Virus record (IMG/VR): IMGVR_UViG_3300000279_000019
DNA: 16,930 nt
Strand: one strand, 5' to 3'
Source of the DNA: a virus
Lineage: Duplodnaviria > Heunggongvirae > Uroviricota > Caudoviricetes
Part shown: piece by piece, positions 46-14,372 of the stretch
How the letters are laid out: the number at the start of each line of letters is the position of its first letter
Position numbering within the stretch: the first letter of the stretch is position 1
The notes under the pieces: generated by a model
Database searches by the model: none
Told to the model about the DNA's origin: nothing
The model's input: only the letters and a program-made list of their open reading frames with translations
Program-made: the position numbers and the translations under genes

Positions 46-298
46 TTGGGGGTATCTCCACTAAACTGAACAGCAAATCCCCTCAATTGCTTGTAGAGTT
101 TGGGGTACTTAAATAGACGTCAAAAGACTAAAAGGGGCATTAATATACTGATTATAAGAGGTTTTTAAATACTTGAGTAGACTTGGGGAGACGTTAGAAT
201 GGTGCGATAATAGGAACAAAACATAAACAAAAAATACATTGATATTTAATGATATTTTCATATTTCATTTTTATAGATACCCCCAAAAGTACCCCCAA
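46..298. repeat. Cluster of 11-12 bp GGGGGTA-type repeats in direct and inverted orientation; candidate integrase arm-type sites (attP region) or int promoter/operator
   Basis: TTGGGGGTATCT at 46-57 and its exact reverse complement AGATACCCCCAA at 275-286; TTTGGGGTACTT at 99-110 and near-inverse AGTACCCCCAA at 288-298; CTTGGGGAG at 182-190. Lies immediately upstream of the int start codon in the circular reading. Confidence 0.4.
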
Positions 299-3482: not shown

Positions 3483-3665
3483 TTAACGCCGTAACTTGTT
3501 TGGCTTCGTCCATTGGTACGCCTTTTCGTTTTCCCGCCGCTGGTGGCGTTCCTGTTGCAGCACAACGGAAACAGGCGCTGAACACCTGTTAATTTTGCTT
3601 GCTGGTTGTTTGATTCCGGCAATGCTGCGGATCATCTCCAGCATATCGGCTTCGGTGATGGTCAT
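3483..3665 (-). CDS. Hypothetical small protein (60 aa), downstream partner of the 193-aa membrane protein
   Basis: ATG at 3665 preceded by AGGAAA with a 4-nt spacer (sequence taggaaacctATG); earlier in-frame ATGs at 3692 and 3686 lack an SD. Product MTITEADMLEMIRS..., basic C-terminus. Confidence 0.45.
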   Translation of the reverse strand: MTITEADMLEMIRSIAGIKQPASKINRCSAPVSVVLQQERHQRRENEKAYQWTKPNKLRR

Positions 3666-3714
3666 AGGTTTCCTATCAGCACTCATATCCAATTAATAAG
3701 TTCAATACAATGGA

Positions 3715-4296
3715 TTATCCCGTTTTAGTGACTAACCATTGCAGAATAACGATAATTAAATATGTTAATGTGCCAGTTCCAAGAAGTATTAATAATTGAT
3801 AGCAACGTAGGGCAATATTACTAATCGATTTTTGCATCACGATATTCACTGGCTCAGCCACACACTCTTTAGATCTTATCGATAGAATACTTGGAACTTC
3901 TCTATTTATTGATAATATTTCACATTGAATAGACTCACCAGGTGCAAGGCTTTCAAACTTGATAATATAGCGACCATCCTGTTCAATATTTTCTTCAAAA
4001 TGGTGGACAGGCCAAAAATTAATATGCATTGGCTTATAGTTAAAAACCAATGAGATATTAGTAGCACTTTCTCGCCCTTCATTAACAAGAATAATAGATC
4101 GTGTATACACCAACTGTGAATTAGATATTACCTCACCATTGGCATTCCGTAAGGGTTCATTGAGAAGAAAAGTAAATCCATGCTGATAACCATAGGATAA
4201 CTTTGCCTTGCTTTTAAATCTGTTATTCAGTATCCATGTTAAAATCGTTATAAAAAAAGAAAATAGTTCTTTCCCATAAAGACTAAAAAAACTCAT
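3715..4296 (-). CDS. Hypothetical membrane protein (193 aa) with N- and C-terminal hydrophobic helices, AT-rich cargo
   Basis: GAAGGA SD 6 nt before ATG 4296 (GTG at 4299 also in frame); hydrophobic stretches FSFFITILTWIL and LLILLGTGTLTYLIIVILQWLV flank a roughly 140-aa soluble domain; AT-rich like the 532-aa gene. Confidence 0.65.
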   Translation of the reverse strand: MSFFSLYGKELFSFFITILTWILNNRFKSKAKLSYGYQHGFTFLLNEPLRNANGEVISNSQLVYTRSIILVNEGRESATNISLVFNYKPMHINFWPVHHFEENIEQDGRYIIKFESLAPGESIQCEILSINREVPSILSIRSKECVAEPVNIVMQKSISNIALRCYQLLILLGTGTLTYLIIVILQWLVTKTG

Positions 4297-4430
4297 CACA
4301 CATTTCCTTCAGTAATCTGATTCTGCTGTCAAAGCTACCAGCACTATAGTCATTCATCCACATTGCGACAAGAAGGTTACAGCACGTCCAATCACACCTT
4401 AGGAAATCTTAGGGGGCTGGTTGACACTTT

Positions 4431-4687
4431 CCGGCTTAAGACCTTAATAAATCTTAATATCGCAGGTTGACACACTTGACACTTTTTCGCGAAAAACCTT
4501 AGCATTTCTAAGCATGGCAACTTGACATTTTTCGCGGTTTTTTCGGCTTTTTGACGTGGTAAATCTGGCACAAACCCAGTAATTGCGGGGCTTACAGCGA
4601 GGTTGACACTTTTTCGCGTTCAGAGTGTAAAGTGTCAACCTGGCAAGCTGTCAACCTGGCAAGCTGGCAAGCTGCTCAACTTGACAC
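4431..4687. repeat. Array of TTGACAC(TTTTTCGCG) repeats with a tandem 16-bp repeat; candidate binding-site array (packaging recognition or regulation)
   Basis: TTGACAC at 4431, 4467, 4476, 4603, 4681; TTGACATTTTTCGCG at 4522; TTGACG at 4551; inverted GTGTCAA at 4633; tandem gtcaacctggcaagct at 4634-4649 and 4650-4665 plus a partial third copy. No credible ORF spans it. Confidence 0.6.
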
Positions 4688-4696
4688 TTTTTGATG

Positions 4697-5224
4697 TCAT
4701 TGATGGTCTGATTTTTCCCACTCAGCCAGGGCGTTTAACCCGGCTTCACTCCATGATTCCGGTTCATCGGGATAATCACCTGCAACATAGCAGAGTTCGC
4801 AACGCAGCATACGAATTGCCAGCCTGGCATTACCTCGCAAATTGTATTTTTCAAAGTAATGCTGCCCTTCATCATCCTCAAGGCAGATAGCACCATCATC
4901 AAGAAAGTGCACTTCCCAGCCTAATTCCCCGGCTGCATACAGCACACGCTGCTGTATGCCCTCGTCCGTTACTGGCGCAGGAATTTTACCGTCTCTGGCC
5001 TTAACTGCTTTCCAGAACTCGCCCCATGTCATTTCCAGCGTTCTTTCTGGCCACATTTCAGAAATGGTGCCTTTCCCCTGTGCTGGTGGGCTGTTCCGCT
5101 GCTCTGTCGCTTCCACATCAATTTTTTTACCGGACATGACCACTTCGCCTTTCTCGAGCCAGTCGTAAACTGTCTGGCGGCTTACGCCTTTGTATTTGGC
5201 GTATTCGGCTTTACTCATCAACAT
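4697..5224 (-). CDS. DNA-binding protein with N-terminal lambda Nu1-like (terminase small subunit-type) winged HTH; possible packaging-redirection or regulatory protein
   Basis: GAGGTGA SD 5 nt upstream of ATG 5224; N-terminus SKAEYAKYKGVSRQTVYDWLEKGEV closely parallels Nu1 KKQLADIFGASIRTIQNWQEQGMPV; acidic C-terminal half. Confidence 0.55.
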   Translation of the reverse strand: MLMSKAEYAKYKGVSRQTVYDWLEKGEVVMSGKKIDVEATEQRNSPPAQGKGTISEMWPERTLEMTWGEFWKAVKARDGKIPAPVTDEGIQQRVLYAAGELGWEVHFLDDGAICLEDDEGQHYFEKYNLRGNARLAIRMLRCELCYVAGDYPDEPESWSEAGLNALAEWEKSDHQ

Positions 5225-5323
5225 GTAGCTCACCTCATGCATATACGATAAAAAATAATTTCATGCGGAAAGGGAATGCGTTGTGGGTATGGAGGAAAGG
5301 GGCAATAACCGCCCCTTACTGAT

Positions 5324-5596: not shown

Positions 5597-5760
5597 AGTC
5601 TCACCTCTTTAAGTGCCTTATCCATCAGTTGCCGAGCGATAACATGAATCGACGGTGCCACACCAAGCACAGATTTCTGACGCTCTTCGTCCTGGATGCG
5701 TTGCAGGGCTTCGATCTGCCTCCGGGAAAGTAAAACTGGCTTTACTCCGTGATTTTTCAT
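5593..5760 (-). CDS. Small putative DNA-binding protein (55 aa), Arc/ribbon-helix-helix-like guess
   Basis: ATG at 5760 preceded by AGGGA; product MKNHGVKPVLLSRRQIEALQRIQDEERQK...; the longer 107-aa version upstream is Cys/Asn-rich and looks spurious. Confidence 0.5.
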   Translation of the reverse strand: MKNHGVKPVLLSRRQIEALQRIQDEERQKSVLGVAPSIHVIARQLMDKALKEVRL

Positions 5761-5924
5761 GATGATCCCTTCTGAATGACAATAATTGCAATTATTGCAC
5801 AAATTGAAATGATACCAGAGACAATTGCAATAAATGAAACGAAAAGCATCAATAAACCAACCTTCGGCACTGAATGCTCTGATTTTTCTGCAAAGGTATG
5901 GCAGATGTTGGTGCATGCAAACAT
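5757..5924 (-). CDS. Possible small hydrophobic membrane peptide (start uncertain)
   Basis: ORF ends with ATGA overlap onto the 55-aa gene; C-terminal 30 aa MLFVSFIAIVSGIISICAIIAIIVIQKGSS is one TM helix; candidate starts GTG 5996, ATG 5924, ATG 5849 all have weak or no SD. Confidence 0.3.
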   Translation of the reverse strand: MFACTNICHTFAEKSEHSVPKVGLLMLFVSFIAIVSGIISICAIIAIIVIQKGSS

Positions 5925-8530: not shown

Positions 8531-8539
8531 CGTTACAAC

Positions 8540-8874
8540 TGTCTACCAACTGTCTACCGATATAATTGATTGATTTATTTAATGTTATTAACACATAACA
8601 AAAAAACAATCTGCAAACTGTCTACCAACGGTCTACCGCATTAATACATTGATAATTAATGATTTTTACTAAATGGTAGACAGTGTAGACAGTTAAAAGA
8701 GAAATTTAAAAAATGCCCCCTTAACTATCTGTTTTTTATATACCCCCCGTGGTTTAGGAATATAGAAATAACTGTCTACCTCTCTACCACATTGAAAATA
8801 TCTTTATAATTCAAAATATTAATTGGTAGATGGTTGGTAGAGGGTTAAGTGAATCTGTCTACCAACCGTCTACC
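8540..8874. repeat. Origin of replication: iteron array of (T)GTCTACC octamers in both orientations with an AT-rich spacer
   Basis: TGTCTACC at 8540, 8551, 8619, 8773, 8856; GTCTACC at 8631, 8868; inverted GGTAGACA/GTAGACA at 8675, 8685; GGTAGA at 8825, 8836; pairs spaced 11 bp; AT-rich block 8560-8615; lies directly 3' of the primase gene. Confidence 0.7.
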
Positions 8875-8901
8875 TTTACGTTTCAGCTTATAAATTTCGT
8901 A

Positions 8902-10707: not shown

Positions 10708-10994
10708 TTCTTACCTCCCGCAACCAACATTGCCCGGATTTTTTTAATATTCGTGGCTGCACGTCTCGCCACTGCCTGTTGTTTGTTTTCCACCAGAATA
10801 AAATCACGCTCAAACTGACGGCGCGGCATTACGCAGTCATATTCGTAAGCCTCACGGCGGTAGGTGATATTGCCTGGCGTAACGTGACGAATAACCACTC
10901 GTCCCCCACGTCTGGTGTCGCGGTAAATATCTCCGTGTCTGATTTCAGGCCGAGAGAGACCGCTGGCAGTAAAGCCAGAATTTTTCCTTTTCAT
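10704..10994 (-). CDS. Hypothetical basic protein (96 aa), last small ORF before primase
   Basis: ATG 10994 with AGGAAAA SD; stop overlaps the primase GTG (GTGA coupling); Arg/Lys-rich. Confidence 0.5.
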   Translation of the reverse strand: MKRKNSGFTASGLSRPEIRHGDIYRDTRRGGRVVIRHVTPGNITYRREAYEYDCVMPRRQFERDFILVENKQQAVARRAATNIKKIRAMLVAGGKK

Positions 10995-11783: not shown

Positions 11784-12000
11784 GGTGCACCTCCTGTACA
11801 TCAGCCATGATAATTTTTCCGGCCTTATCCAGTGCCTGATCGGCTTTCAGCTGCACAAATGCTAAATAATGGGAGATGCATTCTGATTCTCTGGCTGCGT
11901 GTTTATGCGCCACACCAGCGATAGCAGAAATCTCAATAAGTGAATCCATCAGCGTTTTGATAGCGTCTACCGCTGCATCAGGCCATGTTGCATTACACAT
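11776..12000 (-). CDS. Hypothetical protein (74 aa)
   Basis: ATG 12000 in an ATGTGTAA overlap with the upstream gene stop; coupled to the next gene by ATGCATAA. Confidence 0.5.
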   Translation of the reverse strand: MCNATWPDAAVDAIKTLMDSLIEISAIAGVAHKHAARESECISHYLAFVQLKADQALDKAGKIIMADVQEVHHA

Positions 12001-12358
12001 GCTCCACCTCCTGGCGAATACGGGCAGCGAATACCATCACGCAGCCATCAGGAGATTGCTGGCGTGCTTCCTGTTCGCTGGTGGCCTCGATGTGAATCAC
12101 GCGCGGTTGTGCCGTACTCAGGGCGATAAAACGCCAGATAAAATTGTTTTCGCATTTCTGAATAAACAACGTGTTTTCTTCGCGCCCTTTCCATGTTGCC
12201 GAGATATAGCCCATGTCATTGAGCATCTCGCAGGCATCAACCAGCGTATCGGCGGCTACATGAACAGTGTTTTTACCGTCAGCCATGCAATCACGGTGCA
12301 CCGCCAGGAAGGTGTATATAAATTTAGGGTGAGTTTGGGTATGCTGTGCCCCAGCCAT
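11993..12358 (-). CDS. Hypothetical protein (121 aa), first gene of the replication operon
   Basis: ATG 12358 with GAGGT SD about 5 nt upstream, located at the C-terminal end of a 512-aa open frame whose upstream part I consider spurious; product MAGAQHTQTHPKFIYTFLAVHRD... Confidence 0.5.
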   Translation of the reverse strand: MAGAQHTQTHPKFIYTFLAVHRDCMADGKNTVHVAADTLVDACEMLNDMGYISATWKGREENTLFIQKCENNFIWRFIALSTAQPRVIHIEATSEQEARQQSPDGCVMVFAARIRQEVEHV

Positions 12359-12447
12359 AATCGTTACCTCATTTAACGGTTTGGTTAGACGCCCCGCTAC
12401 TGCCGCAAACAGTTCGGGGCGTTGTCGTTTATATCCTCTTACTGAGG

Positions 12448-12523
12448 TGTGATTTAAATTAAATTTAACTGAATCACAGGTCAAGTATTTTTTGTGATTC
12501 TTTTTTGTGTATACTGAATCACA
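12448..12523. promoter_or_regulatory. Two dyad-symmetric operators TGTGATT-N17-AATCACA in the divergent promoter region
   Basis: TGTGATT 12448-12454 / AATCACA 12472-12478 and TGTGATT 12493-12499 / AATCACA 12517-12523, 45 bp centre to centre; TATACT -10-like hexamer at 12510-12515; sits between the divergent RHH-like gene and the replication operon. Confidence 0.55.
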
Positions 12524-12545
12524 TCTTTTGTTTAGGAGAATGCAC

Positions 12546-12851
12546 ATGGCAAAAAACACTATCAACGACAAATCAAAACAGATTTCAATTCGTATCCCAC
12601 ATGATGCTTTTGAAGGCATGGAATCCGTAAAACTGGACGGCGAAAGCAACGCCGGATTCATAGTAACCGCCATGCGTGGTGAGATCGCCCGCCGCCAGGC
12701 AGAAGGAAGCGGAGAAAATCCCCTAGTTTCTTCGCTCAATGCACTGGCGCAGGTGGAAAAAATCGGAGTCAAAGCTGTCGAGGAGATCGGGCAGCTCGTC
12801 ACCGTCGCACGTGAAGAACTCCAGCGCCGCAAGGCCAAAGAATCAGAATAA
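12546..12851 (+). CDS. Putative ribbon-helix-helix-type transcriptional regulator (101 aa), candidate master repressor of the element
   Basis: AGGAG SD 8 nt upstream of ATG 12546; N-terminal KQISIRIPHDAFEGM resembles an RHH beta-strand/helix start; only plus-strand gene here, divergent from the replication operon and adjacent to the dyad operators. Confidence 0.55.
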   Translation: MAKNTINDKSKQISIRIPHDAFEGMESVKLDGESNAGFIVTAMRGEIARRQAEGSGENPLVSSLNALAQVEKIGVKAVEEIGQLVTVAREELQRRKAKESE

Positions 12852-13523
12852 TAACTATCATCGCCGTGGTGTGAGGAACTCCGGCGCATTGCTTTACAGG
12901 TACACAGAATGACCAACAAAGAATCGACCAATACACCATCACCGGCACGGAAAAGACAGCGCAGAAAGATAGCGTACGAATATGAGTCAGACAGATTCGC
13001 GCCCTGTGCGTTTATCCTTGAGAAATTCCTTAAAGAGTACAGGCGCACAAAAATGGGGTCGCATACCTGGAAAACATCGCGGCATGGCAATGTTAAAGAG
13101 CAGGAATAGCCCACCAGCAAGCCAGCACACTGATCACATTGCCCACCAGCCGCAAATCTGGCATTGTTGGCGATGTGTTCAAGTGTGTAGCTTTCCCACT
13201 GGTGGCCCTCTGCGGTCGCCTTTGTTTTATCCAGAACGAAATTAGACATCAGATTGATCATCACCTTGCGACCTGACAAAATCGCATCAGTCGCGCCACC
13301 AGCAAAATTTTTTGCTTTCCGGACAGCGTGACCAACGACATTTTGCAGCAAAATATTCTGCATTTCTGGCGTGCTGTAGTAACGGTGATCAGCGCCTTCA
13401 CTCTGTGCGACCACAACGCTATAATCTGCCTCGTAGACAGTAAGCAATATGGCGCAGTAGGCTATTCGTTCACAAAGGCGCTCCGGCAACGGGGCGCTTT
13501 CTCTTTTTGTAACGGTCAGAGCG

Positions 13524-14372
13524 TTACACATGGCTGTTTTCCTCCATGCGACGGGCTAACCAACGCTGCGAAAGACGAATTAATTCAGCTTTCCGCTGGT
13601 GGTAGTCCAGGCCTAACTCAATCAGCGTGATATTGCTCTGCTCAAGGTAAGAAAGGTGCTCAAGCTGCAACGTGCTCATGTGGTCGCGTGGTTCGCCTGT
13701 GATGCCGTTCGCCTGCGTCCACTGTTTTGCAGTCATGCCACCCAGCACGATACGCGCCAGCATATTGGCTTCCGTGGTGTAGTGGTGCTGGAGTGTGTTT
13801 TTACCCAGTTCAGCCCGGTACGCCTCCAGCGCGGCACACATCGGCTTAAAGTAGCTGGCAACGGAGATACGGGCTTTCAGTTCCCGGCGTAACGCTGCGG
13901 AACGCACTGGCGCTACCTTGTGTAGCTCCTCCTCGCATTTGATGAAGTACTGACGAACGGCGCGGCCCTGTTCGGTGCGCTCGACCATCGCCAGTTCTTT
14001 CGCCATGTTCGTGGAGATCAAATAGTCTTCACTGCGACGATCACCGCCGCGCTTTGTTGTCCAATCAAAATCAAACTGTTCAATATTTACACTTTGGTTC
14101 CCCCGTTTCGGGGAATCAAAGTACAAATTATCTACAACTTCAAAATCCACGCCCTTTTTAAATCCGTACTCATCAATGCGTCCTTTAATCCAGGTTGTGA
14201 AATCACGCTTCACACCCAGCGCCTTATGCAACGCTCTGGCGCTAACAATATTGGTTTCACGTCCGCCAATAACGCCGGAAATAACCGGGATAATTTCGCC
14301 GAAATTTTGCAGATTCTGGTTTTCAGGCCGAACGAAGCCCTGCCCCTGTACGGGCGTTTTTCGCTGTTTCAT
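13524..14372 (-). CDS. AntA/AntB-type antirepressor-like protein (282 aa)
   Basis: ATG 14372 with AGGAG SD; segment IIPVISGVIGGRETNIVSARALHKALGVKRDFTTWIKGRIDEYGFKKGVDFEV and later MAKELAMVERTEQGRAVRQYFIKCEE match the AntA-family pattern as I recall it. Confidence 0.65.
   Translation of the reverse strand: MKQRKTPVQGQGFVRPENQNLQNFGEIIPVISGVIGGRETNIVSARALHKALGVKRDFTTWIKGRIDEYGFKKGVDFEVVDNLYFDSPKRGNQSVNIEQFDFDWTTKRGGDRRSEDYLISTNMAKELAMVERTEQGRAVRQYFIKCEEELHKVAPVRSAALRRELKARISVASYFKPMCAALEAYRAELGKNTLQHHYTTEANMLARIVLGGMTAKQWTQANGITGEPRDHMSTLQLEHLSYLEQSNITLIELGLDYHQRKAELIRLSQRWLARRMEENSHV

Follow-up and report, generated by a model that had tools for sequence, protein, structure and literature searches.

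A putative packaging-specificity module, formed by a helix-turn-helix gene and a two-motif repeat array, in a phage-inducible chromosomal island of Escherichia coli

Here we analyse a 16,930-nucleotide virus sequence (IMG/VR record IMGVR_UViG_3300000279_000019), referred to below as the window, which is near-exactly one complete 16.9-kb phage-inducible chromosomal island (PICI), a satellite located at tRNA-Thr in Escherichia coli and a sibling of EcCIMP1. Our analysis centres on a gene for a 175-amino-acid (aa) protein with an N-terminal winged helix-turn-helix, here named HTH175, and on the non-coding repeat array that follows it. We believe, with a probability of about 0.55, that gene and array together form the packaging-specificity module of the island, a functional analogue of Rpp plus cosB without homology to either. 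The case for this is indirect and draws on position, on the homology of one domain and on the sharing of a motif. The original prediction had proposed a packaging module in a satellite lacking capsid genes and had drawn its details from cos phages. A packaging role is the best-supported explanation, given the slot that the gene occupies, its small-terminase domain, the cross-genus array and a pac-like motif, but the cos details did not survive, and a headful (pac) phage is a more probable helper than a cos phage.

In the mechanism that we propose, the winged helix of HTH175, which resembles that of phage small terminases (TerS), would bind one set of repeats in the array, the S sites (GAAAAAGTGTCAAcc), and the interleaved copies of a second motif, M2, would imitate a sequence within the terS gene of a headful helper, probably the helper's pac signal. 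Each S-M2 unit would unite the satellite protein and the helper terminase on satellite DNA, packaging would start at these units and run in the direction of the island genes, and interference with the helper may accompany it. A more specific version, offered tentatively, is that the module represents a second, independently evolved family of packaging redirection aimed at pac helpers, in which HTH175 brings the terminase of the helper to a chimeric pac site. It is just as tentative that this site and protein would combine S sites paired one-to-one with copies of the helper's pac motif and a TerS-type head fused to an orphan domain.

The array and its linkage to the HTH175 gene

Gene, array and S sites are located in the window as follows.

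4697–5224, minus strand: HTH175 gene (175 aa; stop codon 4697–4699), matching RefSeq coding sequence WP_000930136 in a 99%-identical genome
5093–5224, minus strand: N-terminal winged helix-turn-helix, residues 1–44
4709–5044, minus strand: C-terminal alpha/beta domain, residues 61–172, an orphan fold
4396–4696, no strand assigned: non-coding array of two interleaved motif types, free of coding sequences in the RefSeq twin
4681–4687, plus strand: S site TTGACAC, 10 bp past the stop codon, overlapping nothing and invariant in 14 related arrays
4633–4672, no strand assigned: tandem 16-mer region, a 24-bp duplication that adds the partial site GGTTGACAG
4625–4638, minus strand: two adjoining S sites in the opposite orientation (TTGACAC and TTTACAC)
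4603–4609, plus strand: S site inside the exact 16-mer TTGACACTTTTTCGCG
4576–4597, minus strand: central conserved segment CTGTAAGCCCCGCAATTACTGG, between two clusters of sites
4522–4528, plus strand: S site TTGACAT, 17 bp before M2 copy 1
4467–4482, plus strand: two adjoining S sites, TTGACAC at 4467 and 4476
4421–4427, plus strand: S site, 16 bp before M2 copy 3

The predicted pairing of a 175-aa gene with a TTGACA array is real. Counting both strands, the hexamer occurs 14 times in the window and eight of these occurrences fall within 4396–4700, where about 0.11 would be expected from its density elsewhere (post-hoc Poisson P ~5e-13). The open reading frame (ORF) spans 4697–5242 on the minus strand, and the start at 5224 that gives 175 aa agrees with RefSeq, which annotates a hypothetical protein; the 112 homologues are all unnamed and all from Enterobacterales. 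At least eight motif copies in both orientations had been reported, and we confirmed S sites on both strands: on the plus strand TTGACAC lies at 4421, 4467, 4476, 4603 and 4681 and TTGACAT at 4522, and on the minus strand sites lie at 4632–4638 and 4625–4631 (TTTACAC), with TGTCAA at 4649. Their extended consensus in gene orientation is cgcGAAAAAGTGTCAAcc, and the 16-mer TTGACACTTTTTCGCG is found in exact copies at 4476 and 4603. The tandem 16-mer of the original prediction is present at 4633–4664, but it proved to be a 24-bp duplication found in this lineage alone and missing from 13 related arrays. In addition, the array does not begin at 4431 as had been stated; it reaches 4396, 35 bp further, and the earlier boundary cut off the last unit. 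A second repeated motif, M2, had been missed and proved informative.

Among 14 E. coli-type arrays the S sites are invariant and the spacers drift. Conservation of the S sites exceeds the hexamer (GG...CTTTTTCGCG), and TTTACAC is used in other genera. The central segment is kept both in arrays that follow HTH175 and in islands encoding a DUF1441-type TerS, and among the 18 of its 19 IMG/VR matches that were examined (all but L287), all were in known satellite loci and none in a phage. In 17 of the 20 loci compared, the 300 bp immediately downstream of the gene are filled with clusters of GTGT(C/A)AA / TT(G/T)ACAC, with arrays in at least ten genera, namely Escherichia, Klebsiella, Serratia, Pantoea, Rouxiella, Raoultella, Buttiauxella, Pseudocitrobacter, Lelliottia and Enterobacter, and the array persists even at loci where the HTH175 proteins are only 35–40% identical overall. 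Of the 14 IMG/VR occurrences of the 21-nt composite motif ACGAAACCGAYAGSTTKACAC, 13 adjoin the gene, and a paired-site pattern yielded about 40 further gene-adjacent loci; the roughly 54 remaining pattern matches are unrelated AT-rich phages with GTGTCAA repeats of their own. Control islands and phages contain at most one S core per 300 bp, compared with seven here.

The AlphaFold model of HTH175 (predicted local distance difference test score, pLDDT, 87.6) consists of a winged helix (residues 1–44), a disordered linker and a confident mixed alpha/beta domain (residues 61–172) with six strands and pLDDT values of 93–97. In the protein family, 12 of the 15 invariant columns lie within residues 5–35 and the remainder of the protein diverges. 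The N-terminus had been likened to that of lambda Nu1, and this held for the class of protein rather than for lambda: the family profile matches residues 1–39 of the Nu1-type TerS of Serratia phage BZS1 (hhalign probability 96.7%, E 3e-10), whereas against the lambda-type Nu1 of the CFT073 prophage the probability is a negligible 3%. A profile search for Nu1-type domains had been suggested as a check; it succeeded in PHROGs, where residues 1–42 match the 'terminase small subunit' family phrog_57 (E 5e-6), but in Pfam it returned only HTH_17, below threshold. Judged by these profile matches, HTH175 shares homology over its first ~40 residues with the DNA-binding part of a Nu1-type small terminase. 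All small-terminase matches end at residue 42, and the only phage match in the search for whole-protein homologues was the N-terminus of BZS1 TerS. Neither the oligomerisation core nor the C-terminus that binds the large terminase (TerL) was seen in HTH175, and the window contains no terL. For the C-terminal domain, neither structure nor sequence comparison gave convincing relatives beyond its own small family, and TerS proteins yielded none.

M2 and its counterpart in phage terS genes

The three M2 copies lie in the distal half of the array.

4496–4511, minus strand: M2 copy 1, TTAGAAATGCTAAGG
4441–4456, minus strand: M2 copy 2, TAAGATTTATTAAGG
4396–4411, minus strand: M2 copy 3, TAAGATTTCCTAAGG

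M2 can be written T(A/T)AG-W4-NN-TA(A/G)GG (short form YTAAG-N5-YTAAGG); all three copies have the orientation of the gene, and 0.06 copies would be expected by chance. Each follows an S site by 16–17 bp, and given this one-to-one pairing the distal half of the array consists of three S-M2 units. The 28 bp around copy 1 (4488–4515) match at 26 of 28 positions a sequence inside the terS gene of E. coli phages such as vB_EcoS-666R9, co-oriented with the island gene. In phages of this type TerS is a Terminase_2 protein and its partner TerL belongs to Terminase_6N/6C, a group of large terminases typical of headful packagers. The 19-mer ATGCTTAGAAATGCYARGG has 96 matches in IMG/VR, with 46 in Terminase_2 terS genes, 31 in HTH175 arrays, four in DUF1441 islands and 15 elsewhere. 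This last group includes at least one other satellite-type array with different repeats. In an array of this kind (L027, 7400–7640), about six TTTTGCGTACC repeats accompany the M2 19-mer, and after them comes a remnant that looks like the N-terminus of a small terminase (..NTDAAKHGERS..); a similar remnant follows the Serratia array (L004, ~10780–10860).

Within terS the motif is constrained at the nucleotide level. In 63 distinct homologues (48–100% identity), which were gathered through other peptides to avoid circularity, the motif codons are fixed as AGA (63/63), AAT (63/63) and GTT (62/63). Flanking invariant residues vary synonymously, and AGA accounts for 9.6% of arginine codons elsewhere. 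The variants CTAAGAAATCCTAAGG, TTAAGAAATGTTAAGG and ATAAGAAATGATAAGG keep a 10-bp direct repeat, the first base of which co-varies. Nucleotide conservation of this kind, independent of the codons, is the mark of a DNA-level signal within terS and is what a pac site would be expected to show. The pac sites of headful phages usually lie within terS, for example in P22 (PMC11226127). We also considered M2 copy 2 as a P22 pac on account of the shared AAGATTTAT; a one-base gap breaks the published pseudo-pac pattern, and we treat the resemblance as coincidence.

Related islands carry small terminases in or beside the same slot. In a Shiga toxin-producing E. coli (STEC) island, a DUF1441 small terminase occupies the place of HTH175 and is followed by a scaffold homologous to the array; this protein is 65% identical to the TerS of phages such as vB_EcoS-606R10 and PhiR40_1 and 60–62% identical to that of mEp460 and Ayreon. 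In helper-embedded PICIs of Klebsiella, a DUF5681 gene, whose phage homologues lie just upstream of terL, directly follows the array. The DUF1441 islands retain M2 and the central segment (GTAAGCCCCG-AATTACTGG), and at the S positions AAAATGTCAAG is replaced by ACAATGATCAGG and AAAAGTGTCAAG by AAAAATGACAGG. Since S varies with the resident protein and M2 stays the same, this pattern fits S being read by the satellite protein and M2 by something external.

Several details of these relatives are worth recording. The Klebsiella pneumoniae islands (L002 and L003) sit inside a prophage major-capsid gene, near E217-type tail genes, and their DUF5681 gene is intact in L002 and internally deleted in L003. 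The ends of phage Ayreon, which has a DUF1441 TerS, were considered as a source of the array scaffold and are unlike it. The STEC313 island, which has the DUF1441 TerS, also contains a lambda-cosB-like stretch on the minus strand (L140, ~5740–5850; ..TTTATGAAAATTTTTCGGG..CCGTTCTTCTTC..) with the non-lambda sequence GGGGTACGGGTACGCG at the expected position of cosN, and another lambdoid helper may use this stretch as its cos site. Two PICI-sized records labelled 'Escherichia phage', ON470578.1 (16,180 bp) and ON470618.1 (14,852 bp), encode a DUF1441 small terminase and may be satellites sequenced from virion preparations.

Known packaging systems and competing explanations

The closest functional parallel is Rpp, which redirects the helper small terminase to the island's own cosB, thereby blocking the phage and promoting the island (Fillol-Salom et al. 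2019, PMC6739421). The end of EcCICFT073 reads cos1 - rppA - cos2 - 93-aa ORF - attR, and the end of our island, which has the same overall gene order, reads HTH175 - array - (194-aa insert) - 69-aa ORF, the last being homologous to the 93-aa ORF. In both islands a small satellite protein with an N-terminal TerS-like winged helix, a fold class common to HTH175, lambda TerS and RppC, is encoded by the second-to-last PICI gene before this small ORF, and satellite-specific recognition DNA is combined with a helper-derived element (cosN/cosQ in EcCICFT073, M2 here). Moreover, the invariant S15-R16-Q17-T18 of HTH175 aligns with R21-T22 of RppA, mutation of which abolishes cos1-directed packaging (PMC6739421). 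The differences are also clear. The C-terminal half of HTH175 is alpha/beta, whereas that of Rpp is a three-helix region with a long dimerising coiled-coil helix (PMC6739421), and because this domain is an orphan alpha/beta fold HTH175 is not an Rpp relative. In line with this, sequence homology does not reach past the helix: HTH175 and RppA (L139:22660-23094) align by BLASTP with E 0.06 over 35 residues and by hhalign with a probability of 25%, and phmmer against the PDB did not find RppC at E values up to 1. The array lies 3' of the HTH175 gene, whereas the recognition DNA lies 5' of rppA; cosN is absent here, and the module is more likely to serve a headful helper than a cos phage of the lambda type.

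HTH175 also shares with Nu1 and the TerS of BZS1 an N-terminal winged-helix DNA-binding domain and an array of short repeats beside the start of packaging, which for HTH175 is a proposed one. In the Serratia cos phage vB_SspM_BZS1, terS starts 75 bp from the cohesive end and nine GGTAACA repeats surround it at 48–297 near the cos end, with none in the next 2.9 kb, a layout that closely parallels GGTTGACAC. Unlike these terminases, HTH175 lacks the oligomerisation and TerL-binding parts, and its gene is not followed by terL. The module belongs to neither the Rpp/cosB nor the Nu1/cosB family, though the proposed logic is alike. DNA repeats within terS are found in two unrelated genes, that of BZS1 (L023, 48–297, the GGTAACA repeats just mentioned) and that of vB_EcoS-666R9 (L144, 3200–3330, five to six TGCGCAGA-like repeats). 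In both, the repeats coincide with a low-complexity linker rich in Lys, Gln and Asn after the DNA-binding head, which suggests that binding sites are embedded in the terS coding sequence of these phages.

The satellite small terminases (SaPI TerS, from Staphylococcus aureus pathogenicity islands, DUF1441 and DUF5681) presumably serve the same purpose, with the helper terminase choosing satellite DNA, and the two DUF genes occupy the same slot; these are true TerS homologues, whereas HTH175 shares only the class of DNA-binding domain. The array may further resemble the phage P1 pac site, a composite signal with clusters of short repeats on either side of a central segment, although P1 uses other motifs and proteins and its pac is a phage site and not a satellite site. 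The P1 pac contains seven hexamer repeats in two clusters (cited in PMC11260489).

Several observations weigh against a packaging function of HTH175 and the array. BLAST against 50,697 phage records (INPHARED) found no S array, and two pattern scans of IMG/VR found the array solely beside the HTH175 gene and in no phage. HTH175 has zero similarity to Terminase_2 TerS, so an Rpp-style heterodimer formed by domain mimicry is not indicated. The 26/28 match to terS had an original BLAST E value of 0.03. We found no description in the literature of a pac site for the Terminase_2 phage family, and for this reason the equation of M2 with pac is something that we infer. Island and candidate helper co-occur in 7 of 32 IMG isolates, which is not above the 16.5% background. 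The matches of HTH175 to Pfam HTH_17 (21.8 bits, cutoff 27) and TIGR01764 (20.8 bits, cutoff 28.8) are both sub-threshold, the HTH_17 shortfall counting here, and the winged-helix class is also common to excisionases and MerR regulators. Finally, a look for a cohesive-end site nearby had been suggested as a check, and the window contains no lambda-type cosN (GGGCGGCGACCT) within two mismatches and no lambda cosB-like sequence; as a positive control, the same search recovered two exact GGGCGGCGACCT copies flanking rppA in EcCICFT073.

These points leave most room for HTH175 being an ordinary transcription factor of the MerR/excisionase type and the array a multi-operator for the small ORF or for an antisense promoter. 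We regard this main rival as unlikely, although its fold class is indeed that of MerR, BldC and Xis, the sub-threshold HTH_17 and TIGR01764 matches point the same way, and where relatives lack the insert, their small ORF begins directly behind the last array unit. A single promoter-like match (TTGACA-18-TAGCAT, plus strand) also lies at 4476; our promoter scan counted four promoter-like sites where 4.5 are expected, and hence no excess. Nine sites and three M2 copies across 300 bp go far beyond the needs of a simple operator, and a regulator leaves unexplained both the triple copying of a motif internal to phage terS and the terS genes or remnants that replace or follow the module in relatives.

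Less probable still is that array and protein act purely as a decoy, titrating or blocking the helper terminase with no role in packaging the island. The blocking of phage by Rpp offers a precedent (PMC6739421), and the M2 copies could be a sink for helper TerS. Against this, no further packaging signal is recognisable in the island, the module occupies the slot that holds the packaging determinant in three related islands, and a pure decoy needs neither the conserved orientation nor the fixed 16–17 bp spacing between S and M2. We consider it improbable that HTH175 is a recombination directionality factor with the array as its binding sites in an attachment (att) arm: the best structural matches do include Pukovnik Xis, RdfS, Cox and AlpA-family excisionases, but the array lies ~4.2 kb from the att core at 206–215 with cargo between, an AlpA-type gene already stands beside the integrase, and the position of the sites is tied to the gene and not to att. 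That the array is a second origin, a P4 crr-like cis-replication region or a sigma-70 promoter cluster, the first and last of which the original prediction had raised and which are prompted by short repeats in both orientations and by TTGACA being the -35 consensus, is very improbable, because a separate canonical origin with a different iteron (AACTGTCTACC) adjoins the primase at 8531–8901, and because conservation runs well past the hexamer, other genera use TTTACAC and promoter-like sites are not in excess.

For want of a recognisable packaging module, many PICIs of Gram-negative bacteria are listed as potentially defective, and the EcCIMP1 paper says so of EcCIMP1, the packaging module of which its authors did not find (PMC11773190). 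If HTH175 and the array do direct packaging, they would fill this gap for islands across Enterobacterales that are present in ~3% of complete E. coli genomes and that carry defence cargo (GapS1) and virulence regulators (PerC), and packaging redirection would have evolved repeatedly, on the basis of different protein architectures. M2 (YTAAGAAAT-NN-TAAGGTT) is a concrete pac candidate for a common family of temperate E. coli phages; if the assignment is correct, it would reveal the pac of Terminase_2 phages present in about one sixth of E. coli genomes. An array with a single gene would also be a compact sequence usable for engineering transducible DNA.

The island and its other genes

The remaining features of the island are listed below; the first two lines give the gene order on the minus strand, read leftwards.

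Minus strand, first part: P4-type integrase, AlpA-type regulator, AntA/B protein, D5_N/DUF5906 primase
Minus strand, continued: ProQ/FinO and PerC genes, several unknowns, HTH175, array, 194-aa ORF, 69-aa ORF, GapS1 gene
8531–8901, no strand assigned: replication origin (context, outside the module); its 11-bp iteron AACTGTCTACC is present at least 12 times, in both orientations
3715–4299, minus strand: 194-aa ORF between the array and the small ORF, without a family match
3483–3692, minus strand: small terminal ORF of 69 aa, ending ...YQWTKPNKLRR, homologue of the last ORF of EcCICFT073
206–215, minus strand: distal att core TCCTATTATC, which marks the island end and is common to EcCIMP1 (PMC11773190)

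The window has an integrase, an AlpA protein, a primase with an adjacent origin, unidirectional genes and att repeats, and lacks structural virion genes, as expected of a Gram-negative PICI. In the twin genome, a 99%-identical E. coli chromosome, the island lies between the tRNA-Thr that adjoins proA and a vat/MarR island, and it is bounded by TCCTATTATC repeats. It shares the att site with EcCIMP1 and has a near-identical integrase but a different late region, and EcCIMP1 lacks the HTH175 protein. Excision and transfer of EcCIMP1 by phage Kapi1 have been shown experimentally (PMC11773190). The origin comprises 371 bp directly after the D5_N primase gene, with iterons flanking an AT-rich core, and an origin directly downstream of the primase is the arrangement seen in other PICIs (PMC6092414). 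Rfam and tRNA scans of the window gave no match.

The 69-aa ORF matches the 93-aa last ORF of EcCICFT073 (BLASTP E 6e-7), and loci of Klebsiella, Serratia and Pantoea have the same small ORF behind the array. Because it directly follows the last M2 in six relatives, we regard the 194-aa ORF as an insertion outside the core module, and it is probably mobile cargo. Further cargo lies at the distal end, between the putative packaging module and att: the 532-aa protein encoded at 990–2588 on the minus strand belongs to the GapS1 family of antiphage proteins (NCBIfam NF047931, E 6e-132). A 512-aa minus-strand ORF at 11993–13531 looks spurious, as RefSeq places a plus-strand YlcI/YnfO gene and an Icd-like pseudogene there. 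This stretch is a P4-like 'Bro/immunity' zone, in which the Rfam families C4 and isrK score below threshold.

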